Source of the DNA: Leucoraja ocellata
Taxonomy: Eukaryota
Assembly: GCA_036785375.1 (NCBI GenBank)
Contig: JAWMAR010000402.1
Span: 744,001-808,000, forward strand
Length of the DNA: 64,000 bases
Direction: 5' to 3'
The notes beneath the pieces are model-generated. The model was not told the DNA's origin. It saw only the letters and a program-made list of their open reading frames with translations, and made no database searches. Position 1 is the stretch's first letter, and each line of letters opens with the position of its first letter. This document shows, piece after piece, positions 1,864-64,000 of the stretch. The position numbers were made by a program, and so were the translations under genes.

Positions 1864-2037
1864 TGGTACAGTTGCTTCTTTGTCAAAGTACTTTCCAATC
1901 TGAGTTTTTCCACTGATGAAGATACCAAGAATAGGTTCTAGTTGCCTTGTCTCAATTAATTTATCGTCTAAATACAATGTAGCATCTCTCTCTGTTACTA
2001 GGACTCGCAAAAGGTGCCATTCTTCATCAAACAGAGC
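1864..2037 (-). CDS. COL21A1: COL21A1 exon (TSPN)
   Basis: ctccAG|ALFDEEWHLLRVLVTE...GKTQIGKYFDKEATVP|GTAAGT; 174 nt, phase 0-0. Confidence 0.93.
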
Positions 2038-8628: not shown

Positions 8629-8854
8629 CTTTATACGTGCTGAAGTGAAGGTCACAGACTGCGTATCATTCACTACTTGAGTTGTATGAAAAATGACTGT
8701 GTTGTCTTCGCCATTCAGTGTAACAGCAGTTTGAATTGTACCATCTAAAGATAAGATTCTCCACAAATCCCATTTTTCTTTTGTTGTGGGTCTCTTGAAT
8801 CGTAATGTGGATACAAAGACATAGGAAGGTGGAAGGCCATCAGGAAAGATATCA
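8629..8854 (-). CDS. COL21A1: COL21A1 exon (TSPN)
   Basis: ttacAG|(S)DIFPDGLPPSYVFVSTLRFK...WDLWRILSLDG...AVTLNGED...TFTSARIK|GTAAAA; 226 nt, phase 2-0. Confidence 0.94.
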
Positions 8855-8971: not shown

Positions 8972-9137
8972 CTTGTTTTTTCTGTTAAATCATCCTCTGC
9001 GGTAACCCTGTAACCTCTTTTGCCATGATAAGAGCCTTCAATTCTAAGGGCTTTTTTCCTAATGTCTAATCCAACAAGGATATCAAATCCCTTTTCATCC
9101 CGAGATGCCACAGGTATTCTTGTGGGGCAGACAGTTT
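8972..9137 (-). CDS. COL21A1: COL21A1 exon (vWA-TSPN linker and TSPN start)
   Basis: tttcAG|(E)TVCPTRIPVASRDEKGFDILVGLD...DLTEKT|GTATTA; 166 nt, phase 1-2; matches recalled human SVCPTRIPVAARDERGFDILLGLD. Confidence 0.95.
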
Positions 9138-14711: not shown

Positions 14712-15272
14712 CTTCACAAAGTTTCTGTTTCATTATTTCTCTAATTCTGGATATTCCAGTGTAATCCTTCACATGGAAAACATAAGTGGATGATGGCTTA
14801 TTGGCAATTGTTTGAAGTTCTGTGTCTTCTATTTCCTGACCAACTCCAATTGCAAATAATATAATTTTCTTTTTCCTTGCTGCTTCTGCTGATTCCTTCA
14901 CATCATCCTGGGATCTTCCATCCGTAAGTACAATTGCTACTTTGGTAACGGCATTAACAGCCCTGGTTGAGGTAGCAAACACATTATCAACTCCAAATGT
15001 TATGGCTTTTCCCGTTCTGGTGTTTCCACCCCTATATAAGATTGTTTCCATTGCTTCCATCAAGTCTTCATTGGACCTATGTTGTTCCAATAGGATTTCT
15101 AGCACAGGATCATCACTATATTGTACAACACCAACTTGTGTAAATGAAGTCCCTATTTCAAAACTGCTGGATATGTTAATAATCCAGTTTTTGACTATTT
15201 CAAAATTATCTGGTCCGACACTGAAGGAACCATCCAAAATAAAAACTAGGTCATTTGGAGCAGTTCTGCAGC
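14712..15272 (-). CDS. COL21A1: COL21A1 exon encoding the whole vWA domain
   Basis: ttctAG|(S)CRTAPNDLVFILDGSFSVG...VLTDGRSQDDV...KQKLCE|GTAAAT; 561 nt, phase 1-1; intact MIDAS motif DxSxS. Confidence 0.96.
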
Positions 15273-19498: not shown

Positions 19499-19577
19499 TG
19501 GATCTTACGTCATCGTCCATAGCTGTACTGACTTCTTGTAGCAGCAGAAATAGAAAACTTTGCAGGACAAAATTCAT
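19499..19577 (-). CDS. COL21A1: COL21A1 first coding exon (signal peptide); acceptor at 19641
   Basis: ATG at 19577 gives MNFVLQSFLFLLLQEVSTAMDDDVRS+A|GTAAGA, which joins the vWA exon as VRSSCRTAP, as in recalled human COL21A1. Upstream acceptor is ttcttcatttcAG. Confidence 0.88.
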
Positions 19578-30050: not shown

Positions 30051-32866
30051 TGTAGATGGTTTATGCATGCAACCTATAACGTAGCTACCTAAACACCACT
30101 AACCACGCCCAGCCATATCAGTATAACTGTGATATCCTCCCCTTGTTCCTCCCTTTTGGTTCCAGTACGCCTGAAGACTAGATGCAGTCAGTGCTGGGAC
30201 GTGTGTGCCATGTGCTTTAATAAAAGACTCAGTAAAGGTCACTGTGTCAGACTTGACTCCTTTACATGGTGTCAGCAAGTTAAACGCGCGTTTCCTGTTT
30301 ATCGGGTTTTATTTGTCCCTAGTGTAACTAGTGTTTAATTCCCCATTCATTATGACATCCTCATGCCGAAAGCCCTCTCCCCTTGTCTTTGACGCTGACA
30401 TTGCGGAACGATGGGCTACTTTCGTGATGGACTACAACCACTTCATCAACATCGCGCACCGAAATGACCCAGATGCAGTCAAAGCTTCCCTCCTGCTGAA
30501 CCTTGCCGGTCCCGACGCCATTAAATGAGCTCAGGCTTTCATCTACAATCCAGCGGTCCTGGATGACAACGACCAGGTCGTCGAGCCGGCGGAATCTGCC
30601 AATGACCCGGTATGTCTCTTACGCAAGTTTGCGGAGATTTGTAACTTGCCCTCCAACCGCATATTGGAGCGGGCTAGATTTTTTACACGGAAGCAGCAGC
30701 CTGATGAGCCTGTTGAATGTTTTATCGCTGACCTGCGCTACCTTGCTCAGCGGTGCCGTTTCGAGACCATGCGTAATCAGCTCACCAGATATCCTTGTCA
30801 CCGGCATGCTCGATCAGAAGCTACGTGCTGATCTACTGCAAAGACCAGACCTCACCCTGACTCAGGCAATGCATGCCGTATTGCTGAAGTAGTTGCCCCG
30901 CCACATGGGCAGAGGGGATCTGACAACCGAGCTATAAATCTGACTGGCGTTGCTATGCCCCGTCGAAAGCAAGACAACTTTCGCCCTCCGCCGCGGCCCA
31001 TTCATGCTCCACAACTGCAATTATGTCCACTCCATGCAATCCCAGTGCCCAGCATTTGGCAAAGCTTGTAATTTATGTAGGAAGATGAACCACTTTGCAG
31101 CTGCCTGTCGCTCCCGTGGGAACGTTCCCCCACCTCCTAGACAATTCTTAAACAACCTTCAGCAAGTTGATAATGAACTCGATTCCCAGTCTTCTGTCGA
31201 CACTGCCCCCGACTCTGAGCCCAGCATTTCCATGGGAGATACTAGTGTTTACACTCCTTCATCGCCGATCTCGCCTCCCCGATCCTTCTGTGCTCATTAC
31301 TGTGAACAACAAGTCCTTCTCCGCGAAGCTCGACACGGGGGCGAAAGTGAATGTTATGTCAACATCCCTATTCAACCAGATAAGAAATAATGAGCTGTTG
31401 ACTGCTGATCGCTCTGTATTGCGTGCTTATGGAGGAGAGGAGCTAACACATGTGGGGAGGGCCACCTTCCATTGTGTGCTGCAGAAATCATCCCGTGACC
31501 TGTCGTTTTTCATTCTGGACTGTGACTGTGTAACTCTATTGAGCAATCAAGCCTGTCAGGATCTCGGTCTAGTGTCTTTCGACCGTACGGTCCACGAAGT
31601 GCGGGTGATGCTGAATCCACTCTCCGAGTACCCTGACCTCTTCGACGATAAGTTGGGGAAGCTACCACTTGTGTACAAGATCGCAACTGACCCCTCGGTA
31701 GTGCCTGTGATCTGTGCCCCACACAGGGTGTCGTTTGCCATGAAGGGCAAGGTGGAAGCCATGCTGAAAAACATGGTTGACATGGGAGTGCTGGAAGCCG
31801 TCAGCGATCCCACCGAGTGGGTCTCCACCATGGTCGCCACCATGAAGAAGGGTAGGAACGAAATACGGGTGTGCATCAACCCCAAGGATTTGAATCTGGC
31901 AATAAAACGTCCCCACTACCCTATGAGGACTGTAGAAGATGTTGCTGCCCAGGTCGGACAGGCCACGGTGTTTTCCGTCCTCGATGCCAGGAGCTCGTTC
32001 TGGCAAATATCCCTAGACAAACGCTCCTCGGATTTAACCGCTTTCGGCACACCCTTCGGAAGATTCAAATTTTTGCGGATGCCGTTCGGCATCAACTCCG
32101 CTAGCGAAGTGTTTCAGCGCTCCATGGAGCAACTGTTTGCTGGTCTGCTATGTGCCATTATTGTGGATGACATTCTTGTTTATGGGAGAGATGCTGCTGA
32201 GCATGATCGCCACCTCCGACGGATTCTAGACCGTGCTCGCCAGATCAACTTAAAGCTTAACCCGTCAAAATGCAGGTTCCGGGAAGCTGAGGTACCATAT
32301 GTTGGCCACATTTTCACGGCCCACGGGCTGAAACCTGATCCGCAAAAGACAAACGCTATCTCCGAGCTGCCTGCACCGACAGATGTTACCAGCCTGCAGC
32401 GTTTCCTGGGTATGGTCAACTATTTGGGCAAGTTTATCCCCGACCTCAGCGAGTTGAGCGCACCCCTGAGGCAACTGACGAGAAAAGACATTGCCTGGTC
32501 CTGGTTTCCACACCACCAGCAGGCTTTCGATTTCCTCAAAACGAAGCTGATCAGCACGCCGACTCTCAAATTCTTCGATCTGCAGCGTCCAATTGTGGTT
32601 ACGTGCGACGCTTCCCATTTTGGACTAGGTGCTGCCTGCCTGCAGCTCTATGATGATGGCTCGCTGCAGCCCATTTCCTATGCCTCGCGAACCATGACAG
32701 ACACTGAGCAGCGCTATGCACAAATAGAGAAAGAAGGAGCTTCTGGCGGTTGTGTTCGCCTGCTCCAAGTTCAAGCACTTCCTTTTCAGTACCAGGTTCA
32801 CTGTCGAGACGGATCATCAACCCTTGGTGACGATCCTCAACAAGCCTATCCACATCGCTCCAGCCA
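30051..32866 (+). mobile_element. Gypsy/Ty3 LTR retrotransposon, 3'-truncated (LTR, PBS, gag, PR, RT, RNase H)
   Basis: LTR tgta...taca at 30051-30266 with AATAAA; PBS TGGTGTCAG at 30267; disrupted gag from 30352 with CCHC knuckle CNLCRKMNHFAAAC; LDTGA protease; IVDD RT; CDAS RNase H. No integrase or 3' LTR. Confidence 0.92.
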
Positions 32867-33990
32867 GACTCTACGATGAAGGTGAGAACAGACTCTACGA
32901 TGGCCGTGTAGAATTGTACCATCATTGTTTAAGAAGGAACTGCAGATGCTGGAAAATCGAAAGTACACAAAAATGCTGGAGAAACTCAGCGGGTGCAGCA
33001 GCATCTATGGAGCGAAGGAACTGCTTCAGACCCTGAAGGGTTTCGGCCCGAAACATTGCCTATTTCCTACGCTCCATGGATACTGCTGCACCCGCTGAGT
33101 TTCTCCAGCATTTTTGTGTACCATTGGACCATCATTGCCTGTGGCAGATTGTGCTTCCTCAGCTGCCGCAGGAAGTACATCCTCTGTTGTGCCTTTTTGA
33201 CTGTGGAGTCGATGGTAGCCCCCCACTTAAGGTCCTTGGAGATGATGGTTCCCAGGAACTTAAAAGACTCCACAGATGTGACTGTGGTGTTGTTAATAGT
33301 GAGTGGGGTGAGGGGAGCGTGCGCTCTCCTAAAGTCTACAATCAATTGCAGTGTCTTAAGAGCATTGAGCTCTAGGTTGTTGCTATGCCACCAGGGCGCC
33401 AGCTGTGACACTTCCTGTATGTAGGCAGATTCCTCCCCATCCTGGATCATTCCAATCAGGGTTGTGTTGTCCGCAAACTTGAGAAGCTTGACAGAGGTGT
33501 CTGTGGTGGTGCAGTCGTTGGTGTAGAGAGAGGAGAGGAGAGAGTAGGCAGCCTTGCGGTGCTTCTATGCTGAGCGTTTGCGGGTCCAAGATGTGCTTTC
33601 CCAGCCTCACATGCTGCTTCCTGTCTGTCAGGAAGTTGGCGATCCACCGACAGAGGGGTTCAGGCAGTCAACTCGGAAAGTTTGGAGTGTAGTAGCTCTG
33701 GCACAATGGTGTTGAATGCAGAGCTAAAATCAACAAACAGGATCCTCGCATAGGTCCCCTGGCGGTCTAGGTGCTGTAGGATGAAGAGCAGGCCCAGGTT
33801 GACTGCGTAATCCACAGATCTATTGGCCCGATATGCAAACTGCAGAGGGTCCAGCAGGAAGTTTGTGATATTTTTCAGCTTGGCCAGCACAAGCCTTTCA
33901 AGTGTCCTCATGACTGTAGTCATTAAGACGTCATCCTTGCCTTTTTTGGTACAGGGACAATAGTGGAGACTTTGAAGCAGCCTCCAACCT
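32867..33990 (-). mobile_element. Rex/Babar LINE RT fragment
   Basis: LDPLQFAYRANRS, LFVDFSSAFNTI and FKFLGTIISKDLKW motifs. Confidence 0.85.
32928..33122. mobile_element. Palindromic Penelope-derived insertion with TSD
   Basis: Inverted arms gctggagaaactcagcgggtgcagc / gctgcacccgctgagtttctccagc, flanked by attg(t/g)accatcattg. Confidence 0.8.
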
Positions 33991-48579: not shown

Positions 48580-51000
48580 TCAAACCTCTGACGCTGTATA
48601 TGCCAGAACACTCTTGTTCAAAAATTCCTGTAGATTCACATTAGGATCACTGAGGTCCAATTGAAGGAACGTATCTGCCAATGCTTTGTATGTTTCCAAC
48701 TGGTTTGCTTTTGTAGGACAGTCAAGACGACAAATGGGTTGTCCACTGCGATATAGTTCAGATATCTGTGTCCCTCGCTTCACCACCTCTGGTGGCATCC
48801 CAGCCAGTGTAGCTATATTGGCAGCGTAGCTGTCGGTAGAAACACCGTCCTTTAGCTGGTAGAAAAACACCAGCTCCTCCCCATCCTGTATGGTCTCCAG
48901 CATTAGGTAACGTATTAGGTTAATAGTAGGGAGTAGTTGTAGCTGAACTAAACTATGAAAATTGGTAGATACAAAGATATGCGGGCACTTCACATCTTGC
49001 TGCACCCAATGCCTTAAAACAGCTGCAAGAAGTGATAAGCCATCAACACTGTTGGTTCCTTTTCCAAACTCATCAATTAGTACTAGAGATCTCTCTGTAG
49101 CACTGTTAACTGCAGCAGCCACCTGATTTAAGTCTATGATAAATGTGGAGAGCCCCACAGACACTGATTCACGACTTTGGATCCTCGTGTAAATACCATC
49201 TATTAATCCAATTTCTGCATCTGTGGCAGGTACATAACTACCTATTAGTGCCATGAATACTATTAGGCCAACCTCCTTGAGATATACACTTTTGCCACTG
49301 GAATTTGGACCAGTGAGGATACTTATCTTTCCATGTTCTCCACCAGTACTGATAGGGTTTGAAACAAATGTCCTTGTGCACATTTCCATGAGAGGATGTC
49401 TTCCATCTTTAATATTGATTATATTCTTGCTGGTTAACCTTGGCCTTATATAGGTATTTTCTCGGGCCACAACAGCCATGGCAATTAAGCAATCCAAATG
49501 AGCTGTATATTCCATCACATCGAAAAGAACTGCAGACTTCTCCAAAACCTTTACCTGCAGCTGGTACATGACAGCTGTCTCAAGGTCCCGGATTTCACAA
49601 TGCAAGTCTCCCAACATTGTATCAAGCTCTTTGGTTCTGGCACTTCTATAATGAAGCCTACCCTCGGATAGAAACATGAAATCCAGTCCCTCTATTTCAA
49701 AATCATCCTTGTCTACCATGCTTGGAAGGCGTGGAATAGTGAGAAGAAATCCTATCAGAGGGATGTAGATAACACAGCATGAAGGAATCCTGCTGTCTAG
49801 TAGGGTTAGTTCATTCCTTGCTACTTCAGTTAAGAAATCTGACAGACCCATCAGTTTACGTTTTTTCTCATCTATAGCTGGGTCCACGTTTGGCCGAACA
49901 GTGAATCTGTTCTCCGTATTACTACCTTCAAAATCCACCACTTTTGTTATGAGACTGGCAATATAATGAAGATCATCTGTGAAAGTGTGAGAGATCTTTG
50001 CAAAGAGCTCTACAGATCTGGGCAGGGATGTGCAAGTGTCTCCAATGCACACAGCGTTGTACACTGTCTTATAAAGGGCTTGCCAGTCACTCACTTTGGT
50101 GTACGATAGTGTCATCCTTTTCAGAATTGATGGGACATTTCTGATGTGTTTCAAGCAGTCCTGAAGCGTCTGCACTATCTCAGTGTTTCTTGCCAGCATG
50201 AAAAACTGGATGGCATCCAGCCTCTTGTTCAGCTCCTCCGGGTTTATCGTAGGACGCATGAACCACAGCCTCATCAGCTTTGTCCCCCATTGGGATCTGC
50301 AGCGATTCATAACTCCGAACAAGCTGAGTCCTTCTTTCACCCCTGACGCCAGTTTGTACACAGATGGGTGCACCTCTGACTTAAAAATCTGCAACACGCA
50401 GTAAGCGTCTTGGTCAATGTGAACGATGTCATTAAGGACAAATTTCTTGATTGCCAGGATGGGGACGCTCACGCTGGGATCTTCTAATTCCACTCCAATC
50501 CTCCTCCTCTCTATAAACTTCAGAAGCCCCCCGAGTGCTCGCAACATGGTGGTGCACTCGAATGGGATGATTGCCGCCAGGTACACGATCTTCTCTGCTT
50601 CGGTCAGATGAGAGGGGACAAAGGGCAAGTTGGCAGACAGCACCCGCTGCTTGCTGATATTGAGCCCAAAGTCCACGTTGGGGAAGAGAGCTATTTCTGG
50701 CTTCCCATCCTCTCCGTTGTTGGCCGTCCCCATTGCTTGGAGGAAGTCCGCCATAATGTGGTCTTGCTTCGCACTTGTTAAGATGCACCGGGGCTGGATT
50801 TCTTCCAATACTTTCTTCAGCAACTTGAGATCCTGTGAGTCGGGGGTATCGGACATGATGTAAACGGTACAGTCATTTGCGTTGTAGTAAGCGAGCCCGA
50901 GCTGTCCGCTGTGCCACAGGACGCTCGCATACACCTCGGGCTGGGTGGAGGCATCCGCGTCATCCACCACAGCCGTTGTCGGTGGAGCAGAGTTATTCAT
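48580..51000 (-). CDS. MSH5: MutS homolog 5, single-exon ORF, 806 aa
   Basis: Uninterrupted ORF with MSH5-type HPSVYK...[17 protein letters not shown], Walker [12 protein letters not shown] and Walker [10 protein letters not shown]. No mismatch-binding domain I, as expected for MutS-gamma. The ORF-track start at 51027 is GTG; the first in-frame ATG is 51000. Confidence 0.95.
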
Positions 51001-51039: not shown

Positions 51040-51335
51040 ATCCCCGCGGTTTATTTACACCGCCATTTCCGACTTCCAGGGCGGCCACGAATGTGACCGC
51101 GGTTGGCTGCAGTCGCGCGTGGGGGCGATTGGCATGGAGTGTCGTGCGGTCCCGGTCTCCCGAGCGAGGGAGGTGGCGGTTGGGCACGTGTCGCGCGCGG
51201 TCCGGTTCCCCGAGCGAGGGAGGCGGCGGTTGGGCCCGTGTCGCGCGCGATCCGGTTCTCCCGCGCGAGGGAGGTGACGGTTGGGCCCGTGTCGCGCGCG
51301 ATCCGGTTCTCCCGCGCGAGGGGGGAGGTGGCGGC
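51040..51335 (-). promoter_or_regulatory. CpG-island promoter of MSH5
   Basis: Very CpG-dense. YY1-like AAATGGCGG at ~51060-51068, CCAAT at 51128-51132, CACGTG at 51185-51190, TCCCGC at 51259 and 51310. Confidence 0.7.
51139..51334. repeat. ~50-bp GC-rich minisatellite, ~4 copies
   Basis: Unit gtgtcgcgcgcgatccggttctcccgcgcgagggaggtggcggttgggccc at 51139, 51188, 51238 and 51289. Confidence 0.9.
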
Positions 51336-55869: not shown

Positions 55870-55971
55870 CAGAAAGGTGCTTCAAAAAAGTCATTATTAT
55901 TTACACATATTCTTCAATAATAGTGTAATTTTTTTAGGTGGAATGTGTTGTTGCTCAGGGTTGTCAGCATT

Positions 55972-56114
55972 TTAGTTGCATACTGTTGGCCTACAGACAC
56001 CTGGAGTTCCCATATGTCCTGGATATCCTTGTAAACCTTGTTGCCCTGTGTGACCTCGTTGACCTTCTTGCCCTGATTGTCCAGGTATGCTTGATCCAGG
56101 CTTTCCATGGTCAC
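55972..56114 (-). CDS. Terminal exon of a second FACIT collagen (COL21A1-like)
   Basis: cacatAG|(G)DH GKP GSSIP GQS GQE GQR GHT GQQ GLQ GYP GHM GTP GVCRPTVCN*: Gly-X-Y repeat plus the FACIT G-X-C-X4-C motif. Confidence 0.9.
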
Positions 56115-56922
56115 CTATGTGAATAGCAACATCAATAACGCCAGGAAATACAAAAGGCTAGAAATAATAATATATCTGCAAAGGCTTAGTGAGCAGAACA
56201 TATTCAACTAACATATTTAGTATGATGGTCCGACACTGCAAATGTTTGTGCACGTAAAGATAAGATTTGTAAATAGCAAATTATTAATTGTGATTGGGGA
56301 TCAGGCATCCAAGTGCGGGAATTGGAATGATCCTTGGGGGTAGAATAGGATTGTGACGAGCTGATAAGGGGTCAAGCAGCAGATCATTGGGATGAATTTG
56401 GACCAGCGATGGGTAGGGATTGACAAGAATTGTGCAAGAAAGAGTTTGGCTGGAATGAAGGTCAGATGAGGAATTAATAGGGGTATCTGGCAATGATTGG
56501 ACATGAAATTTGAGGGGCGAAAGGCCAGGATGGTAATTGGGGTGGGAATTAGAGATTGCAAATTGAAGATGAAGGGTTTTAGGACAACAAGGGAGAACTG
56601 CCCAAAGGTGTTTTATTTATAGGAGACCAGGCTGAGGGAATTGGAGTACATGACTTGGGACCCGCTCAGGTAGGTGCTATTATAGCTAACTTTAAAGCAG
56701 GTCTCACATTCTCAGAATGCTTACTTTGATTAAGAATTGAATGACAGTAGCTATATCCAGACCACTTCAATTGTTAGCATTCAGAGGATTTGCGGTCTGC
56801 TTACAATTTTCCTTCATGATCGTTTTATTTTTTATTATAACTAAATTATGTTGTGCATAAATGTGGTACAAGATAGGCCACAGCTGATTTTAATGCACAA
56901 TATCAAATGTATGAAAAATTAC

Positions 56923-57000
56923 CTCTTGAGCCCTGTGCTCCTATAAAACCAGGGTGTCCAATACCTTGAGAGCCTTTGTCACCAAGGACTCCATGTTCCC
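56923..57000 (-). CDS. Penultimate exon of the second FACIT collagen
   Basis: catttcAG|(G)EH GVL GDK GSQ GI GHP GFI GAQ GSR G|GTAATT; 78 nt, phase 1-1. Confidence 0.9.
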
Positions 57001-57306
57001 CTGAAATGAGAAATGCAGAAACATGTGAAATGTTAATTAAGAAACCCTTCTCCACAAACAATTATTACTTTGAGATTAACAGGCAGCACAAATCTTTCCT
57101 ACCCTAACACCATCATGAGGTCGATGTCCTGAAATGAAATTGGGAATTTGTCTGCACAAGGATGAAGCAGTGGTCACCTTAAATAAAACTACCGTGGACA
57201 CGCCCTGAGCTGGTGCAAGCATTGGGGAACCAGTGTGAGAGAGTTGTGGCATTTCAGAGAAGGATGGTACTTCCAAGGCTCATAGGTACATAGAAACCTC
57301 CATGTA

Positions 57307-58905
57307 CAGTGCATTCTGAAAATATTCAGACCCCTTCACTTTTTCTACATTTTGTTCTTACAGCCTTATTCTCAAATGTATTAAATTATTTTGTTTTTAT
57401 CATCAATCTACACACAATACCCCATAATAAAAAAGTGAAAACAGGCAAAGTAATTAAGTGAAATTTTAAGTGAAAAGTAATTAAAAAGAAATAACTGAAA
57501 TATCACATTTACACAAGTATTCAGTTAGTACTTTGTTGAGGCACCTTTGGCAACGATTACAACCTCAAGTCTTCTTGGGTATGACGCTACAAGTTTGGCA
57601 CACCTGTATTTGGGTAATTGCTCCCATTCTTCCCTGCAAATCCTCTCAAGCTCTGTCAGGTTGCATGGGGAGCGTTGATGCACAGCTATTGTCAGGTCCC
57701 TCCTGAGATGTTCGTTAGGGTTCAAGTCCGGGCTCTGGCTGGGCCACTCAAGGACATTCACAAGCTTGTTAGAAAGCCACTCCCGCGTTGTCTTGGCTGT
57801 GTGCTCAGGATTGTTGTCCTTTGGAAGGTGAACCTCCGCCCCAGTCTGAGGTCCAGGACACTCTGAAGCAGGTTTTCATCGATCTCTCTGTACTTTGCTC
57901 CGTTCATCTTTCCCTCGATCCTGACTAGTCTCCCAGTTCCTGCAGCTGAAAACCATCCCCACAGCATGATGCTGCCACCACCATGCTTCACCATAGGTAT
58001 GATATTGGCCAGGTGATGAGCGGTGCCTGGTTTCCTCCAAACATTACGCTTGGCATTCAGGCCAGAGTTCAATCTTGTTTTAATCAGTCCAGAAAATCTT
58101 GTTTCTCATTCCTTTTGGCAAACTCCAAGCAGGGTGTTATGTGCCTATTAATGAGGAGTGGCTTTCGGCTGACTACCATAAAGGCCTGATTGGTGAAGAG
58201 CTGCAGATATAGTTGTCCTTCTGGAAGGTTCTCCCATCTCCACAGAGGAACTCTGGAGCTCTTTCAGAGTGACCATTGGGTTCTTGGTCACATCCCAGAC
58301 CAAGATCCTTCTCCCCTGATTGCTCAGTTTGGTCAGGCGGCAGTTCTATGAAGAGTCCTGGTGGTTCCAAAGTTCTTCCATTTAAGAATGACGGAGGTCA
58401 CTGTGCTCTTCGGGACCTGCAATGCTGCAGAAATTGTTTTATACCCTTCCCCAGATCTGCGTCTCGATACAATCTTGTCTAGGAGGTCTATGGACAATTC
58501 CTTTGTCTTCATGGCTTGGTTTTTGCTCTGACATGCACTGTCAACTGTGGGGCCTTATATAGACAGGTGTGTGCCTTTCCAAATCATGTACGATCAATTT
58601 AATTTACCACTGGTGGACTCCAATCAAGTTGTGGAAACATCTCAAGGATAATCAATGGAAACAGGATGACCCTAAGCTCAATTTTGAGTGTCATAGCAAA
58701 GGATCTGAATATTTATGTAAATGTGATATTTCAGTTATTTCTTTTTAATTACTTTGGAAAAATTTCAAAACACCTGTTTTCGCTTTTTCGTTCTGGGGTA
58801 TTGATGATAAAAAACATGAAATTTAAATTTACATTTTAAAACAAGGCTGTGACGTAACCAAATGTGGAAAAAGTGAAGAGGTCTGAATTCTTTCTGAATG
58901 CACTG
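57307..58905 (-). mobile_element. Tc1-like DNA transposon, full length, with a frameshifted transposase
   Basis: TA|cagtgcattc...gaatgcactg|TA with long TIRs; ATG at ~58512; VKHGGGSIMLWG and WPSQSPDLNPNEH motifs, ending TKY* at 57525. Confidence 0.93.
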
Positions 58906-59498
58906 TATAGAGGCCAGGATAAGTCTCCAACTTTCTTCTTTGTCTAATTAAGCTTAAATGAAAATTGGAATCATATACAACTATAGATCAATGCAGTGCT
59001 AAGAACTAATCCACACAATTGGCAATAGCATCATGCATTCCTCAAATTTTAACTATGCCTTCCAGTTTAGTTTAATGTATTATTACCACGAGTTCCGAGG
59101 TACAGTGCAAAGCCTCTTACGGTTAGTCTATATTTAGAAAGAGGACTAGTCTAAGATGAAGGTCTGGAGCAGTAATTCATTATAACAATAAAGTAATAGA
59201 AGAGCACTTAGAATAGACTTCATGGTCTTGCAATCTAATGTGACGGGCAGGAAGCGGAAGATTAGAAAGAGTTAAAAGCACACAATATTAATTTATGGCC
59301 AAGAAATGGCATCCAAGCTCAGACTTCCAATCTAGGTTTAGGTTTATTGTTGTCACTGCCGTCACCAGCCCAATTAAGATCCAGTGATTACAATATCTTG
59401 ATATCTTTGAATGTGATTGGATGTTTTTATTGCTATCAAGTGAGTGGCTCAAAGTTGCTGGGTAGAAATTTAATACAGGGTTTATGGAAGGTTTAGAA

Positions 59499-59956
59499 CA
59501 GGGGTCGCAACCTTTTACTGCATAGGGGCCAGGACCCATGTCTGTGAGCGGATGGCGGGCTATATCTATCGCCTTAGTTAATAAATGGAGGTAATAATAA
59601 TACATACTAACTAAATTTGAAATTAGTTACAATACATATTAATAATACATGCATACTAATAATCCATACTAACTAGAATGATATGGTGTTGTTTTTCGCA
59701 TTAGTTTTCACGTGTTTTTCAAATAGTTTCCTGCAGTTCCCAGATCCCTCGCGTGCCTCGGGACTGGCTGAAGTTCCCAGGTCAGCTCGCGTCCCTGAGA
59801 TTAGCTGCAGTTCCCAGGTCAACTCACCTGTCCCGGGACTGGCTGCAGTTCCCAGGTCGCAAAAACTAATTGAAAAAAAAAAAATACGCCTGCGGGCTGG
59901 ATGATTTCGGGTTACGGGCCGGATTCGGCCCGTGGGCCATAGGTTGCCGACCCCTG
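59499..59956. mobile_element. hAT-family MITE
   Basis: caggggtcgcaacc...ggttgccgacccctg TIRs and a perfect 8-bp TSD, GTTTAGAA. Confidence 0.9.
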
Positions 59957-60163
59957 GTTTAGAAGTAGAGGGTAAAGACTTACATGAGTAAAGATATGCA
60001 ACAGAGTAGCAAATGAACACACATCAAAAGTGATCCAACTAATGAGATTGGTGCAAACTGACATATGAACTCTACTATTATAACATGAAGCTGTCAAAGT
60101 GACATCAAAGACGGACAAAATACACAAAGAAACATTGTTTATACTAATTAAAACCAAACAGAC

Positions 60164-60254
60164 CCTTCAACCCTTGCAATCCTGGATCACCCAGTTCTCC
60201 AGTGAATCCTTCTGGTCCTTGTTCTCCATCCCTTCCATTGATTCCTGGCCTACC
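60164..60254 (-). CDS. Antepenultimate exon of the second FACIT collagen
   Basis: ttttaAG|GRP GIN GRD GEQ GPE GFT GEL GDP GLQ GLK G|GTCTGT; 91 nt, phase 0-1; ten perfect Gly-X-Y triplets. Confidence 0.88.
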
Positions 60255-60760: not shown

Positions 60761-63700
60761 TTTTACTTCGGAGTCACGCGAGTGACTACGTGAAGATGGC
60801 CGTCCAGGCGCATGCGCGTCATCTCGTCAGACGCATTGCGCTGTGACCGCGGGAAGGAGGTACGCAACCTCCAAGCGGTGAGTAAAAGAAAACCTGAACG
60901 TAAGTATTTTTACTTTCACTTTCAGGCTGCTTTTCTCCGGGGAGACTACGTGCAGAGACGTGCAAGTCTTCATTTATGGAGAAAGGTGGGAGGAATAAGG
61001 GAAAGCGCACCGCAGTAAGCACTCAAGAAGACAAAATGTCTGAGAATAGCGGGCGCCCGACTAAAAAGTCGACGGTAGGAAAACTGAGTACTTCTAAACC
61101 GGGAGAAAAAAGTCCCGTTGAAACTCCCACAGAGAGCAAGGCCAAAAAAAAAACTAATAGGCCTATAGACTCGGACGAGTCCAAGCCAGAGATCATGTCA
61201 GACAGAGTTTCTCAACTGGAATTCCTCATGGGTAAAATGATTTATAAAGGCAAACTCCAGAAGGAGTATAAAAAACGCGGGCTTAAAGAGCAACCGCATG
61301 GAACACCCAGGAGAGGTTCTGGGAAACGCTGGCCCAGATTTGAGCCAGTAACCGAAATGCCTGATGATGAAGATGAATATGTTGGCTGGCCTAGCATGGA
61401 GGCAGCAACAGAAATGTCTGAAAGAAAATACAGACGCTGGTCTACAGGAGACCCAGAATATGGAACAGCACCCAAAAGTGGGCTGCCAGTATACAGCTCA
61501 ATGGAAGAGCTTGATATACCCCAAAGAGGGGGAAAAAAGCGGAGGCCGATAAGATAGGCATCACATGAAATACCTGGTGAAGAAATGCCAGGTGAAACCC
61601 ATTATGAGGAGGAATATCCAGAATTCTCTGACAATGAATCTATTGAGGACCAGAGCCCAACACAAAAAAGGCAAGTACCAGGGCTGGCCCAAAAGTTCTC
61701 TAGTCCCAGTTACAAGGGACCACCTCTATCAGAGGATATAGCAGAAAGTATAAATTACCTGCTTTCCCATCATTTGGAAGAACCAACAACGGATGATATT
61801 GTGAACAAATATGAAGTCCCGCAAAATTGTGCTCTGCTAGCAGTTCCATCTGTTAACAGTGAAGTGTGGAGTTACAAGGGCACAACAGTACGTGCTCAAG
61901 AAATGAAGTTACAGCGGGTACTAAGATTAATTGGGTCAAGCATTACGGCATTTGCCAGAGACCTGGAAGAAGGAAATGTGACAAAGTCACAGCAGGATGT
62001 GATGGGAATGATGTGGAATGCACATTTTGAAATAAACTGTATTCTTAAAACTGCGATAAGACCTAACATACATCCTAAGTTTGCAGGGCTCTGTAAACCA
62101 TCTAATATACAATTGCCACACTTACTCTTTGGAGAAGAGCTAGCCAAAAAGCTGAAGGTTCTCAACGAAGAATCAAAAACTATCGGGATGATGAAACCAC
62201 CAATGTTTGGCAGCACAGCTAGAAGGCAATATCCATATCGAAGGGGAACTGGTGAAGGAACAAGTCGCTCGTACCCGCATACACGATATTGGCGTGCGAC
62301 CTCAGGAAGTGGAGGACATGGTATTTCCACAAGGGGCAAGGTACAAAAAGTGACACCAGGAACCCCTGAGGTAGGTGGTTCTGGTTCTGAGAGAAACATA
62401 TCAGATGAGTCCTACTCACAAATTGGGGGAAGGTTACAATTCTTCCTAAAAGAATGGCAACTAATAACATCTGATGCATATATACTGTGCAGTATAATGG
62501 GGTTTAGAATTGAATTCTACCAAAATGAAAATCCCCCTACTCAACATATTCCAAGACGAATACATTCTTTCTCTAAAAAAGAGATTAGAATCATTCAAGT
62601 AGAAATTGACTTATTGAGTAAAAAAGGGGTAATTGAGAAAACAACTTATCAAAACCACCAGTTCATATCTAGTATTTTCTCTAGACCAAAAAAGGATGGT
62701 GGCTGTAGACTCATTTTGGACCTTACAAGTCTTAACCCTTTTGTACAGTATAAACATTTCAAAATGGAGACATTTACTAATGCTTTGCAATTAATTTCAA
62801 CAGAATACTATATGGCAAGCATAGATCTCCAAGATGCATATTACTCTGTGGCCGTGCATGTTAAAGATCGTAGATATTTGAAATTTGTCTGGATGAGTCA
62901 ATTGTGGCAATTCAAAGCATTGCCTCAGCCCCTAGATTGTTTACAAAACTGCTAACACCAATCTTAGCATTGTTAAGAACCCAAGGCCATTTGATAATGG
63001 CTTATTTGGATGACATTTTAATTGTGGGAGAAGCCATAACAACAGCATCAGTTTTAAAAGTCAAATTAACATTTCAAAAGTTGGGCTTTGTGATCCACCC
63101 AGATAAATCCAGACTGACATCAAACAAAATAATTGATTACTTGGGGTTCACTATTAATTCAGAGCACATGAAAGTGACCTTACCCAAGGACAAAAAGCTG
63201 CAGCTTATTGAGGGTTGTAAGGAACTAATTGCAGGCAAACAACCATCAAGAACAACCAACAACAGTGGCAAGGTTACTTGGCAAACTAATTGCTGCTTTT
63301 CCAGCTGTTCAGCTTGGCCCACTGCATTATCAGCAGCTGCAGCGAGCAAAGGTATTGGCTTTGAAAAGACATTCTGGTCATTTTGATAGACCCATGCAAC
63401 TACCAAACATAGCAATTGAGGATATAAAATGGTGGATTAAAAATGTTGATTGTTCTTACAGAAAAATTCTGATTGAATCACCAGCTATCATCTTACAAAC
63501 CGATGCAAGTGCACTGGGTTGGGGAGCTGCTGGTGACATCTCAAGCTGTGGAGGTAGATGGAATGCAGAGGAAGAACCTTTGCTCGAGACACATGGCATT
63601 AATTATCTTGAATTATTAAGTGTATTTCATGGCTTGAAAGCCCTTTGCCGCAAGGTACAAAATTTGCATGTACAGGTTCAGATTGACAACACTACGGCAG

Positions 63701-64000
63701 TGGCATATGTCAATCATATGGGTGGAATCAAGTCAGAAGCATGTAACAGATTGGCAAACATGATTTGGCACTGGTGCATTAAGAAAGACATTTGGCTTTC
63801 TGCAATTTACCTGCCAGGTAAATTCAACATAATTGCAGACACTAGGTCACGAACGTTTAATGACAATACAGAATGGATGTTAAATTGTGACATTTTCCGT
63901 AAAATTGTGAAAAGATTTGGGAAACCAGAAATTGACTTGTTTGCATCCAGATTGAACCACCAGTTACCTCAATATGTTTTGTGGGAACCAGATCCAGGTG
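60761..64000 (+). mobile_element. DIRS1-type (tyrosine recombinase) retrotransposon, 5' part
   Basis: Gag-like ORF at 60976-62300; RT motifs GGRLQFF..EW, RLILDL, HFKMET, SIDLQDAY and AYLDDIL; RNase H TDAS..GWG, INYLEL and DNTTA; then DLFASRLN, the start of the methyltransferase-like domain. Several frameshifts; runs off the window. Confidence 0.88.

Follow-up and report, generated by a model that had tools for sequence, protein, structure and literature searches.

The window, a stretch of 64,000 nucleotides from the skate Leucoraja ocellata (assembly GCA_036785375.1, contig JAWMAR010000402.1, positions 744,001 to 808,000), contains parts of two collagen genes in tandem on its minus strand. 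The upstream gene, called X here, is orthologous to zebrafish zmp:0000000760 and is represented by three coding exons at its 3' end. The downstream gene is COL21A1. The sister of X, a second unnamed collagen, is called Y. Judged from its sequence, X is a real FACIT lineage, present in databases under wrong names and so far unstudied. An original prediction, made from the letters of the window, had described the X exons as a hidden, COL21A1-like collagen, either retained in or specific to this lineage.

The three X exons (Table 1) splice to 103 amino acids and a stop codon, at the positions predicted. All three have an AG acceptor, and both introns have a GT donor and are of phase 1; the first donor, GTCTGT, fits the consensus only weakly. 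The peptide is made of Gly-X-Y triplets with two imperfections and ends in G-V-C-x4-C, also as predicted. In FACIT collagens the COL1 helix at the C-terminus conserves two imperfections of Gly-X-Y, and the COL1/NC1 junction carries a pair of cysteines with four residues between them. The helix with its two imperfections is present in X, in the same register as in the other FACIT rows of the alignment. The Cys-x4-Cys motif is present in skate X; turtle, caecilian and gecko X have three intervening residues.

An annotated protein of Amblyraja radiata spans both X junctions with 0 gap columns and is identical at 99 of the 103 residues. The first two exons are protein-identical between the species, and all 4 differences are in the last exon. 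The Gly-X-Y runs in the window are 12, 10 and 5 triplets long and are all at the three X exons (two triplets of the longest extend into intron), while windows shuffled with an order-2 Markov model (n = 60) had 0.033 five-triplet runs per window and nothing longer. The exons are best explained as the 3' end of a functional FACIT gene, as part of an overall explanation whose probability is put at roughly 0.72. A tblastn search with full-length X found zero additional X exons within the 64-kb window, so the NC2, COL2 and TSPN parts of the gene are placed beyond base 64000.

Skate and stingray X have one residue of NC1 after the last cysteine, and sharks and chimaera have about 35 more. An in-frame stretch beyond the X stop codon may be a remnant of this tail. 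Its local alignment to the shark NC1 tails scores 36, which is matched by a fraction of 0.006 of 2000 shuffles in frame 0 (0.74 and 0.095 in the other frames), a weak signal. Truncation of the tail apparently took place in the batoid line.

The neighbouring gene starts 36.4 kb downstream of X on the same strand, close to the 36 kb predicted. Its five exons (19577 to 1864) splice to 402 amino acids with no stop. The product is 68% identical to sturgeon COL21A1 and 63–64% identical to gecko COL21A1, as opposed to 29% to the X TSPN domain over 147 amino acids. It falls in the COL21 clade with support of 100/100, and its vWA domain groups with the COL21 vWA domains at 95/91 and 100/99. The neighbour is therefore COL21A1, and displacement of a part of it does not account for the X exons. 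The prediction that COL21A1 has another, intact FACIT collagen as its tandem neighbour is borne out.

Table 1. Features of the window (positions are those of the 64,000-nucleotide stretch)
Feature	Position	Strand	Remarks
X third-last coding exon	60164..60254	-	91 nt; COL1 Gly-X-Y; phase 0 in, 1 out; identical to Amblyraja residues 940-969
X penultimate exon	56923..57000	-	78 nt; phase 1/1; first COL1 imperfection; X part of the fused sturgeon model stops at the same boundary
X last coding exon	55972..56114	-	143 nt including TAA; second imperfection, 10 triplets, Cys-x4-Cys, one more residue, TAA
In-frame read-through past X stop	55897..55971	-	possible remnant of the ~35-residue NC1 tail kept by sharks and chimaera
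Candidate polyadenylation signal AATAAA	55864..55869	-	~100 nt past X stop
COL21A1 first coding exon	19499..19577	-	ATG at 19577; hydrophobic leader
COL21A1 vWA exon	14712..15272	-	Pfam VWA, 161 bits
COL21A1 TSPN exon 1	8972..9137	-	
COL21A1 TSPN exon 2	8629..8854	-	
COL21A1 TSPN exon 3	1864..2037	-	gene runs on past base 1
MSH5-type gene	48580..51000	-	full-length, intronless, stop-free, 806 residues; in the interval from X to COL21A1, separate from the collagen
Decayed Tc1/mariner-type transposon	57305..58907	-	in X intron between the 91-nt and 78-nt exons; ~220-bp inverted ends, 77% identity
Retrotransposon-like open reading frames	60904..64000	+	most of X upstream intron (3.7 kb); no X exon; no Pfam hit for the two frames scanned

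Orthologues and phylogenetic position of X and Y

The last X exon matches Pfam Collagen with 27.5 bits. A search with this exon gave 2 proteins among 3 candidates: the Amblyraja radiata protein, named 'collagen alpha-1(IX) chain-like' (1042 amino acids, 91% identical over the exon), and a Callorhinchus milii protein named 'collagen alpha-1(XXI)' (1264 amino acids, 61%). Over the whole 103-residue peptide, identity is 68–75% to sharks, stingray and chimaera and 53–58% to turtle, frog and teleosts. A search with the TSPN domain gave 16 proteins among 1261 candidates. Thirteen of these are close matches, from chondrichthyans, turtle, medaka (UniRef name Zmp:0000000760), goby and sturgeon; the other three are gecko COL21A1, at 28–31%. 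Presence of TSPN in Amblyraja X (96% identical to the window peptide) and in other orthologues is indicated by Laminin_G_2 hits below the curated cut-off, a match to the solved structure 2uur and profile matches.

An NC2 profile had 63 matches among 4720 candidates, 45 of them named and 11 with the UniRef name Zmp:0000000760. The named matches come from lamprey, chimaera, sharks, rays, sturgeon, teleosts, frog, caecilians, turtle, gecko and gharial. None of the 45 is from a bird or a mammal, a weak negative from a word-indexed search of 4720 candidates, which agrees with the predicted lack of a mammalian counterpart. X belongs to the zmp:0000000760 group both by its best matches and by its clade, which contains proteins so named. 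The names given to X orthologues by NCBI are 'collagen alpha-1(IX) chain' or 'chain-like', '(XXI)', '(XXII)-like' and '(VI)'. Because orthologues are already annotated, under wrong names, from lamprey to gecko, X is neither hidden nor lineage-specific; it is retained, in a lineage older and wider than the original prediction supposed. Since X and Y are annotated under IX, XXI, XXII and VI, they can be miscounted in studies of fish, amphibian and shark cartilage.

Y was seen in Amblyraja (P0027), Hemitrygon (P0035), a caecilian (P0025) and gharial (P0026), and also in rows P0046, P0059 and P0099. Two lamprey candidates (P0029 and P0060) are weakly placed. There was no named teleost Y among the 45 named NC2-profile matches.

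The conclusions on relationship are drawn from a tree of 34 rows, built from TSPN and NC2/COL1 under LG+G4 without a mixture. Its rows were picked by the authors from the TSPN matches; 8 rows are without the C-terminal part, and two COL19-like C-termini are aligned out of register. An earlier TSPN tree had 88 rows and was made by a quick method. The other FACIT rows came from an unfiltered search of 50% representatives. COL9A1 was anchored by 2uur and COL21A1 by named matches, while the labels COL16, COL19, COL20, COL22 and COL12/14 on unnamed rows are presumptive or taken from domain layout (vWA-TSPN in the case of COL22). For the approximately unbiased (AU) tests, the groupings with COL21 and COL9A1 were fixed beforehand, and leaving out Y was decided after the 88-row tree.

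In the 34-row tree X and Y form a clade with support of 100/100, as do the gnathostome X proteins (100/100). COL21, COL9A1-like, COL22-like, COL16-like, COL19-like and COL12/14/20-like rows are in clades separate from X and Y. Joining X to COL21 without Y is rejected (p = 0.005), and joining X to COL9A1 without Y is rejected more strongly (p = 0.0004). X thus stands outside COL9A1 and the COL22-like clade. A clade of X, Y and COL21 is absent from the free tree and is not rejected (p = 0.27). The vWA domains of X and Y group at 100/100, apart from those of COL21, in a tree of 14 domains. Of 18 proteins tried, 12 supplied these domains; those of COL22-like and COL20-like proteins escaped the motif search.

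The description of X as COL21A1-like was unproven by the features first used for it, because these occur across the FACITs, Y is the closest relative, and X with COL21 alone is rejected. The non-glycine identity of the X peptide is 12–17 of 71 to COL21 and 10–16 of 71 to other FACITs, and the spacing from imperfection to cysteines is also found in COL9A1-like, COL16-like, COL12/14/20-like and Y chains. Both were rejected as signs of a tie. A deeper tie of X to COL21 is nevertheless likely, given the layout, the three-cysteine NC2 and the tandem position, and the tree leaves it undecided. The accepted list of FACIT collagens has eight types, all defined in mammals (PMC9161575). X and Y are a further well-supported FACIT lineage beyond these eight.

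X itself is known from databases. Zebrafish matrisome and collagen reviews probably include it too, under the zmp name. In the available parts of the literature it is present only as a name in lists (PMC10793473; PMC6212880) and probably as one row of a loss table. Section 7 of PMC10793473 calls the annotated zmp:0000000760 uncharacterised. X was not identified in the parts consulted of PMC7461916, PMC13508929, PMC13188829, PMC10751288, PMC3002383 and PMC12111994, including the supplements of PMC13188829 and PMC12111994. No paper describing the X lineage was found in the literature searched, which leaves out most subscription journals.

Gene order, neighbouring features and loss

Synteny outside the window was drawn from one fused sturgeon model and a published table. 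In the sturgeon model (P0011, Acipenser ruthenus), X is fused to COL21A1, which is followed in turn by a TGF-beta/BMP protein. The three-gene fusion is an annotation error that preserves gene order. The junction between X and the vWA exon of COL21A1 falls precisely on the boundary that corresponds to 56923, the end of the 78-nt exon. The tandem order, in this single model, is thus shared with the skate and is therefore older than the split between sharks and bony fish.

The published table lists frog genes that occur in fish and are absent from placentals, by homology and synteny (PMC10416458, in the parts of the paper and its Table S1 consulted). LOC100497103, 'alpha-1(IX)' on chromosome 5, has orthologues in 0 of 3 non-placental mammals, 0 of 4 birds, 3 of 6 reptiles and 6 of 6 fish. 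LOC100488932, 'alpha-1(XXII)' on chromosome 6, has them in 0 of 3 mammals, 0 of 4 birds, 2 of 6 reptiles and 6 of 6 fish; it lies 14 kb before LOC100491712, 'alpha-1(XXI)', on the same strand (0/3, 0/4, 0/6 and 5/6). Frog col9a1 is listed as a separate gene (PMC10416458). By name, chromosome, range and arrangement, LOC100497103 is probably X, LOC100488932 probably Y and LOC100491712 probably a COL21-like paralogue. A second COL21-like subclade is present in the 88-row tree (P0040, P0058, P0085), and LOC100491712 is listed in no amniote of the table. The table, as far as it was consulted, also gives no orthologue of the probable X in Anolis, Notechis and Pogona; X may be decaying in squamates.

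A history consistent with these data would start from an X/Y ancestor and a COL21 ancestor already in tandem before a vertebrate genome duplication, which would have produced an X–COL21A1 pair and a Y–COL21-like pair. Amniotes would then have lost the COL21-like gene, and birds and mammals would have lost X and Y. If the frog matches are true, birds and mammals have both lost the X/Y lineage, and of two tandem pairs only the COL21A1 locus survives in mammals.

Several other elements lie in the window. The MSH5-type gene, which goes unmentioned in the original prediction, was identified by Pfam MutS_III and MutS_V and by its top cluster in the Atlas, 'mutS protein homolog 5' (score 0.99). A CpG-rich stretch is found upstream of it, at 51050-51300. 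Vertebrate MSH5 is a multi-exon gene of the major histocompatibility complex class III region; the copy in the window, judged by its sequence, is a probable retrogene. MSH5 is not mentioned in the main text of PMC10751288, as far as that text was consulted. The Tc1/mariner-type call is based on Pfam DDE_3 and self-blastn. The open reading frames upstream of the X exons are ones we take to be DIRS-like. A Gypsy-type open reading frame for reverse transcriptase, RNase H and protease is at 31152-32879, and LINE-like fragments are found in shorter frames; these are ordinary repeats.

Domain layout, assembly and rival explanations

The layout of the full chain is read from relatives of skate X: a leader, a Ser/Thr-rich stretch in chondrichthyans, an ancestral vWA domain in the lamprey and chimaera models only, TSPN, COL2, NC2, COL1, Cys-x4-Cys and a short NC1. 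The Amblyraja and chimaera proteins start with a hydrophobic stretch, as seen by eye. Lamprey (P0194) and chimaera (P0002) X have the complete vWA-TSPN-COL2-NC2-COL1 order with two helical domains. COL2, NC2 and COL1 are 339, 41 and 112 residues long in lamprey, chimaera and frog X, versus 339, 40 and 109 in gecko COL21A1. The three cysteines of NC2 do not vary among the X and Y rows, all 12 of which have them; COL21 also has three, and other FACIT rows have at most one. Imino acids per triplet are 0.29–0.45 in 11 of 12 X proteins (0.55 in the partial sturgeon X), 0.52–0.59 in five COL21 proteins and 0.39–0.56 in five Y proteins, which were not matched for species. Among the X and Y models, vWA was seen in lamprey and chimaera (P0002, P0194, P0024, P0060) and in none from shark, ray, bony fish or tetrapod; this patchy occurrence reflects either repeated loss or an unannotated alternative exon.

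Zebrafish zmp:0000000760 is in a notochord collagen module with col2a1a/b, col9a1b/a2/a3 and col11a1a/a2 (PMC10793473, section 7 and Table S3, the parts consulted). Because of this, notochord sheath and cartilage are the likeliest sites of X, by extension also in the skate. NC2 is the FACIT trimerisation domain in the consulted parts of three papers (PMC7034273, PMC5126661, PMC12562938), which with PMC9161575 provide the precedent for the mechanism proposed for X – ordinary FACIT biology. A helical NC2 bundle would select and register three X chains; the helices would zip, and the terminal cysteines would then lock the end of the trimer. The secreted trimer, a homotrimer by default, would run along the collagen II/XI fibrils in notochord sheath and cartilage, in contact with them through COL1 and COL2, and its TSPN would point away from the fibril and act as a bridge or spacer. 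In notochord and cartilage, X is thus likely to form a coat on collagen fibrils.

Modelled in three copies, Amblyraja NC2 and its flanks scored 0.34, compared with 0.02 for the best control, a marginal pass of the mark of 0.32 (reached by 21 of 30 calibration pairs, 7 of 16 among animals, and by 0 of 23 single chains). Runs agreed in at least 83% of contacts, pLDDT was 67, and the contacts were heptad-spaced. Taken as a whole, the favoured explanation is that X is a functional ancient FACIT chain, trimerised by NC2 and located on fibril surfaces, from an ancient tandem pair of X/Y and COL21; it is this explanation that is given the probability of roughly 0.72.

A number of points weigh against it. 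The window holds 103 of about 1040 X residues, the remainder being inferred from orthologues. The deep nodes that place X and Y among the FACITs have support of 79/69 and 87/79. The expression evidence is from zebrafish only, and a catshark cartilage study (text and 8 supplementary files) had no identifiable X, which could be there under another label. The trimer score is barely above the mark, contacts are best defined within the Gly-X-Y flank, and the model may reflect memory of the solved collagen IX NC2. The link of the frog genes to X and Y is one of name, chromosome and taxon pattern, not of sequence, and the negative for birds and mammals is weak, as noted above. The gecko X (Paroedura picta) has a long TSPN branch (0.78 in the 88-row tree) and may be decaying.

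The main rival is that X and Y are chains of one heterotrimeric FACIT (X2Y or XY2), selected by NC2 as in collagen IX; it is given this place because of equal domain lengths, NC2 identity of 32–41% and a shared pattern of loss. X and gnathostome Y agree in NC2 and COL1 length (41 and 112) and cysteine spacing, and both genes are present in Amblyraja and Hemitrygon. Their NC2 identity is inside the 30–54% range of the collagen IX chains (PMC12562938, part consulted). In the consulted parts of PMC10416458, the probable frog X and Y share the bird and mammal loss pattern and both fall in tadpole tail regeneration (log fold change -1.64 and -2.11). Of the collagens in the zebrafish notochord module, exactly two are uncharacterised, zmp:0000000760 and zgc:113232 (PMC10793473, same parts). 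Against this, no sequence link between zgc:113232 and Y was found, which leaves the former a candidate only, and no named teleost Y was seen. Equal lengths are equally expected of recent paralogues, and the X homotrimer model did pass its mark, if marginally. FACITs are mostly homotrimers. Collagen IX is the sole heterotrimeric FACIT listed in the consulted part of PMC12562938. A mixed X/Y trimer is thus possible and held with little confidence. The wider proposal that X and Y make up an unrecognised notochord and cartilage FACIT type – of lamprey-split age and tandem-pair origin, a heterotrimer with three-cysteine NC2, lost independently in birds and mammals – is slightly more tentative again. 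That the loss was tied to a proline-poor X helix unstable at the body temperature of endotherms is, for the thermal link alone, doubtful.

The original prediction had X as a divergent duplicate of COL21A1 that could co-assemble with its neighbour as a collagen XXI heterotrimer. The tandem order in the window and in sturgeon is in line with this, as are a COL2 of 339 residues and three NC2 cysteines in both, NC2 plus COL1 lengths within 4 residues, and the clade of X, Y and COL21 that was not rejected. Several points speak against it. X with COL21 alone is rejected, NC2 cysteine spacing is C-x3-C in X and C-x2-C in COL21, the imino acid contents differ, mammals retain COL21A1 and no X was found there, and the MSH5-type gene with its own CpG-rich upstream region stands between the two genes. 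In zebrafish, col21a1 is outside the notochord module, with 0 mentions in the text and no place in the Table S3 row, in the consulted parts of PMC10793473. Co-assembly of X with COL21A1 is the least favoured and an unsupported assembly, and the duplicate model as a whole is improbable.

It is less probable still that X is a decaying remnant in Leucoraja ocellata. An NC1 of one residue, the weak first donor, introns filled with transposons and the placing of all 4 Amblyraja differences in the last exon are what decay might leave, but there is no stop or frameshift in 103 codons and the first two exons encode the same protein as in Amblyraja. The short NC1 is common to Amblyraja and Hemitrygon, and is therefore an old batoid trait that counts against decay. 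That the database names are right and X is a copy of a known FACIT (COL9A1 or COL22A1), as the NCBI names and the best non-helical PDB match of turtle X (2uur, COL9A1) might suggest, is hardly credible when the score of 2uur is 96 bits for X as opposed to 234 for a COL9A1-type row, grouping with COL9A1 is rejected, X has two helical domains and not three, and COL22-like rows have their own 100/100 clade; a mis-assembled 3' end of COL21A1, the other form of this idea, is ruled out, as the exons come from a full-length protein with its own TSPN domain, 29% identical to that of the neighbour.

Comparison with known FACIT collagens

The zebrafish gene zmp:0000000760 (also cabz01044297.1) and its orthologues in Amblyraja, Terrapene and Microcaecilia are the same gene as skate X, and share its NC2 motif and COL1 geometry. 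Chondrichthyan X differs from zmp:0000000760 in an extra N-terminal stretch of 180–320 residues that is rich in Ser and Thr (31–32% S+T), and skate and stingray X are without the NC1 tail.

Y is the closest relative of X, with an NC2 of 41 residues, a COL1 of 112 and the same cysteines. It differs in its NC2, which is 32–41% identical, and in a shorter N-terminal stretch, which is Ser-Gly-rich in Amblyraja. Amblyraja Y is on another contig than X (121.8 Mb versus 115.6 Mb). Provided that the frog match is right, Y is, like X, missing from the lists for birds and mammals.

COL21A1, directly downstream of X, resembles it in having two helical domains, a COL2 of 339 residues, three NC2 cysteines and the vWA-TSPN head that is also present in lamprey and chimaera X. 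It differs in its separate TSPN and vWA clades, an NC2 of 40 residues with C-x2-C (41 with C-x3-C in X), a COL1 of 109 residues (112 in X), a higher content of imino acids and its retention in mammals. Elasmobranch, teleost and tetrapod X models were seen without vWA.

COL9A1 has in common with most X models a TSPN head without vWA, and with X a FACIT COL1 and, in the zebrafish notochord, co-expression with collagen II/XI. It is in a separate clade and has a shorter NC2 with one cysteine, and three helical domains (PMC12562938, in the part consulted) where X has two. COL22A1 is set apart by the separate 100/100 clade of COL22-like rows, which the tree used without their C-termini.

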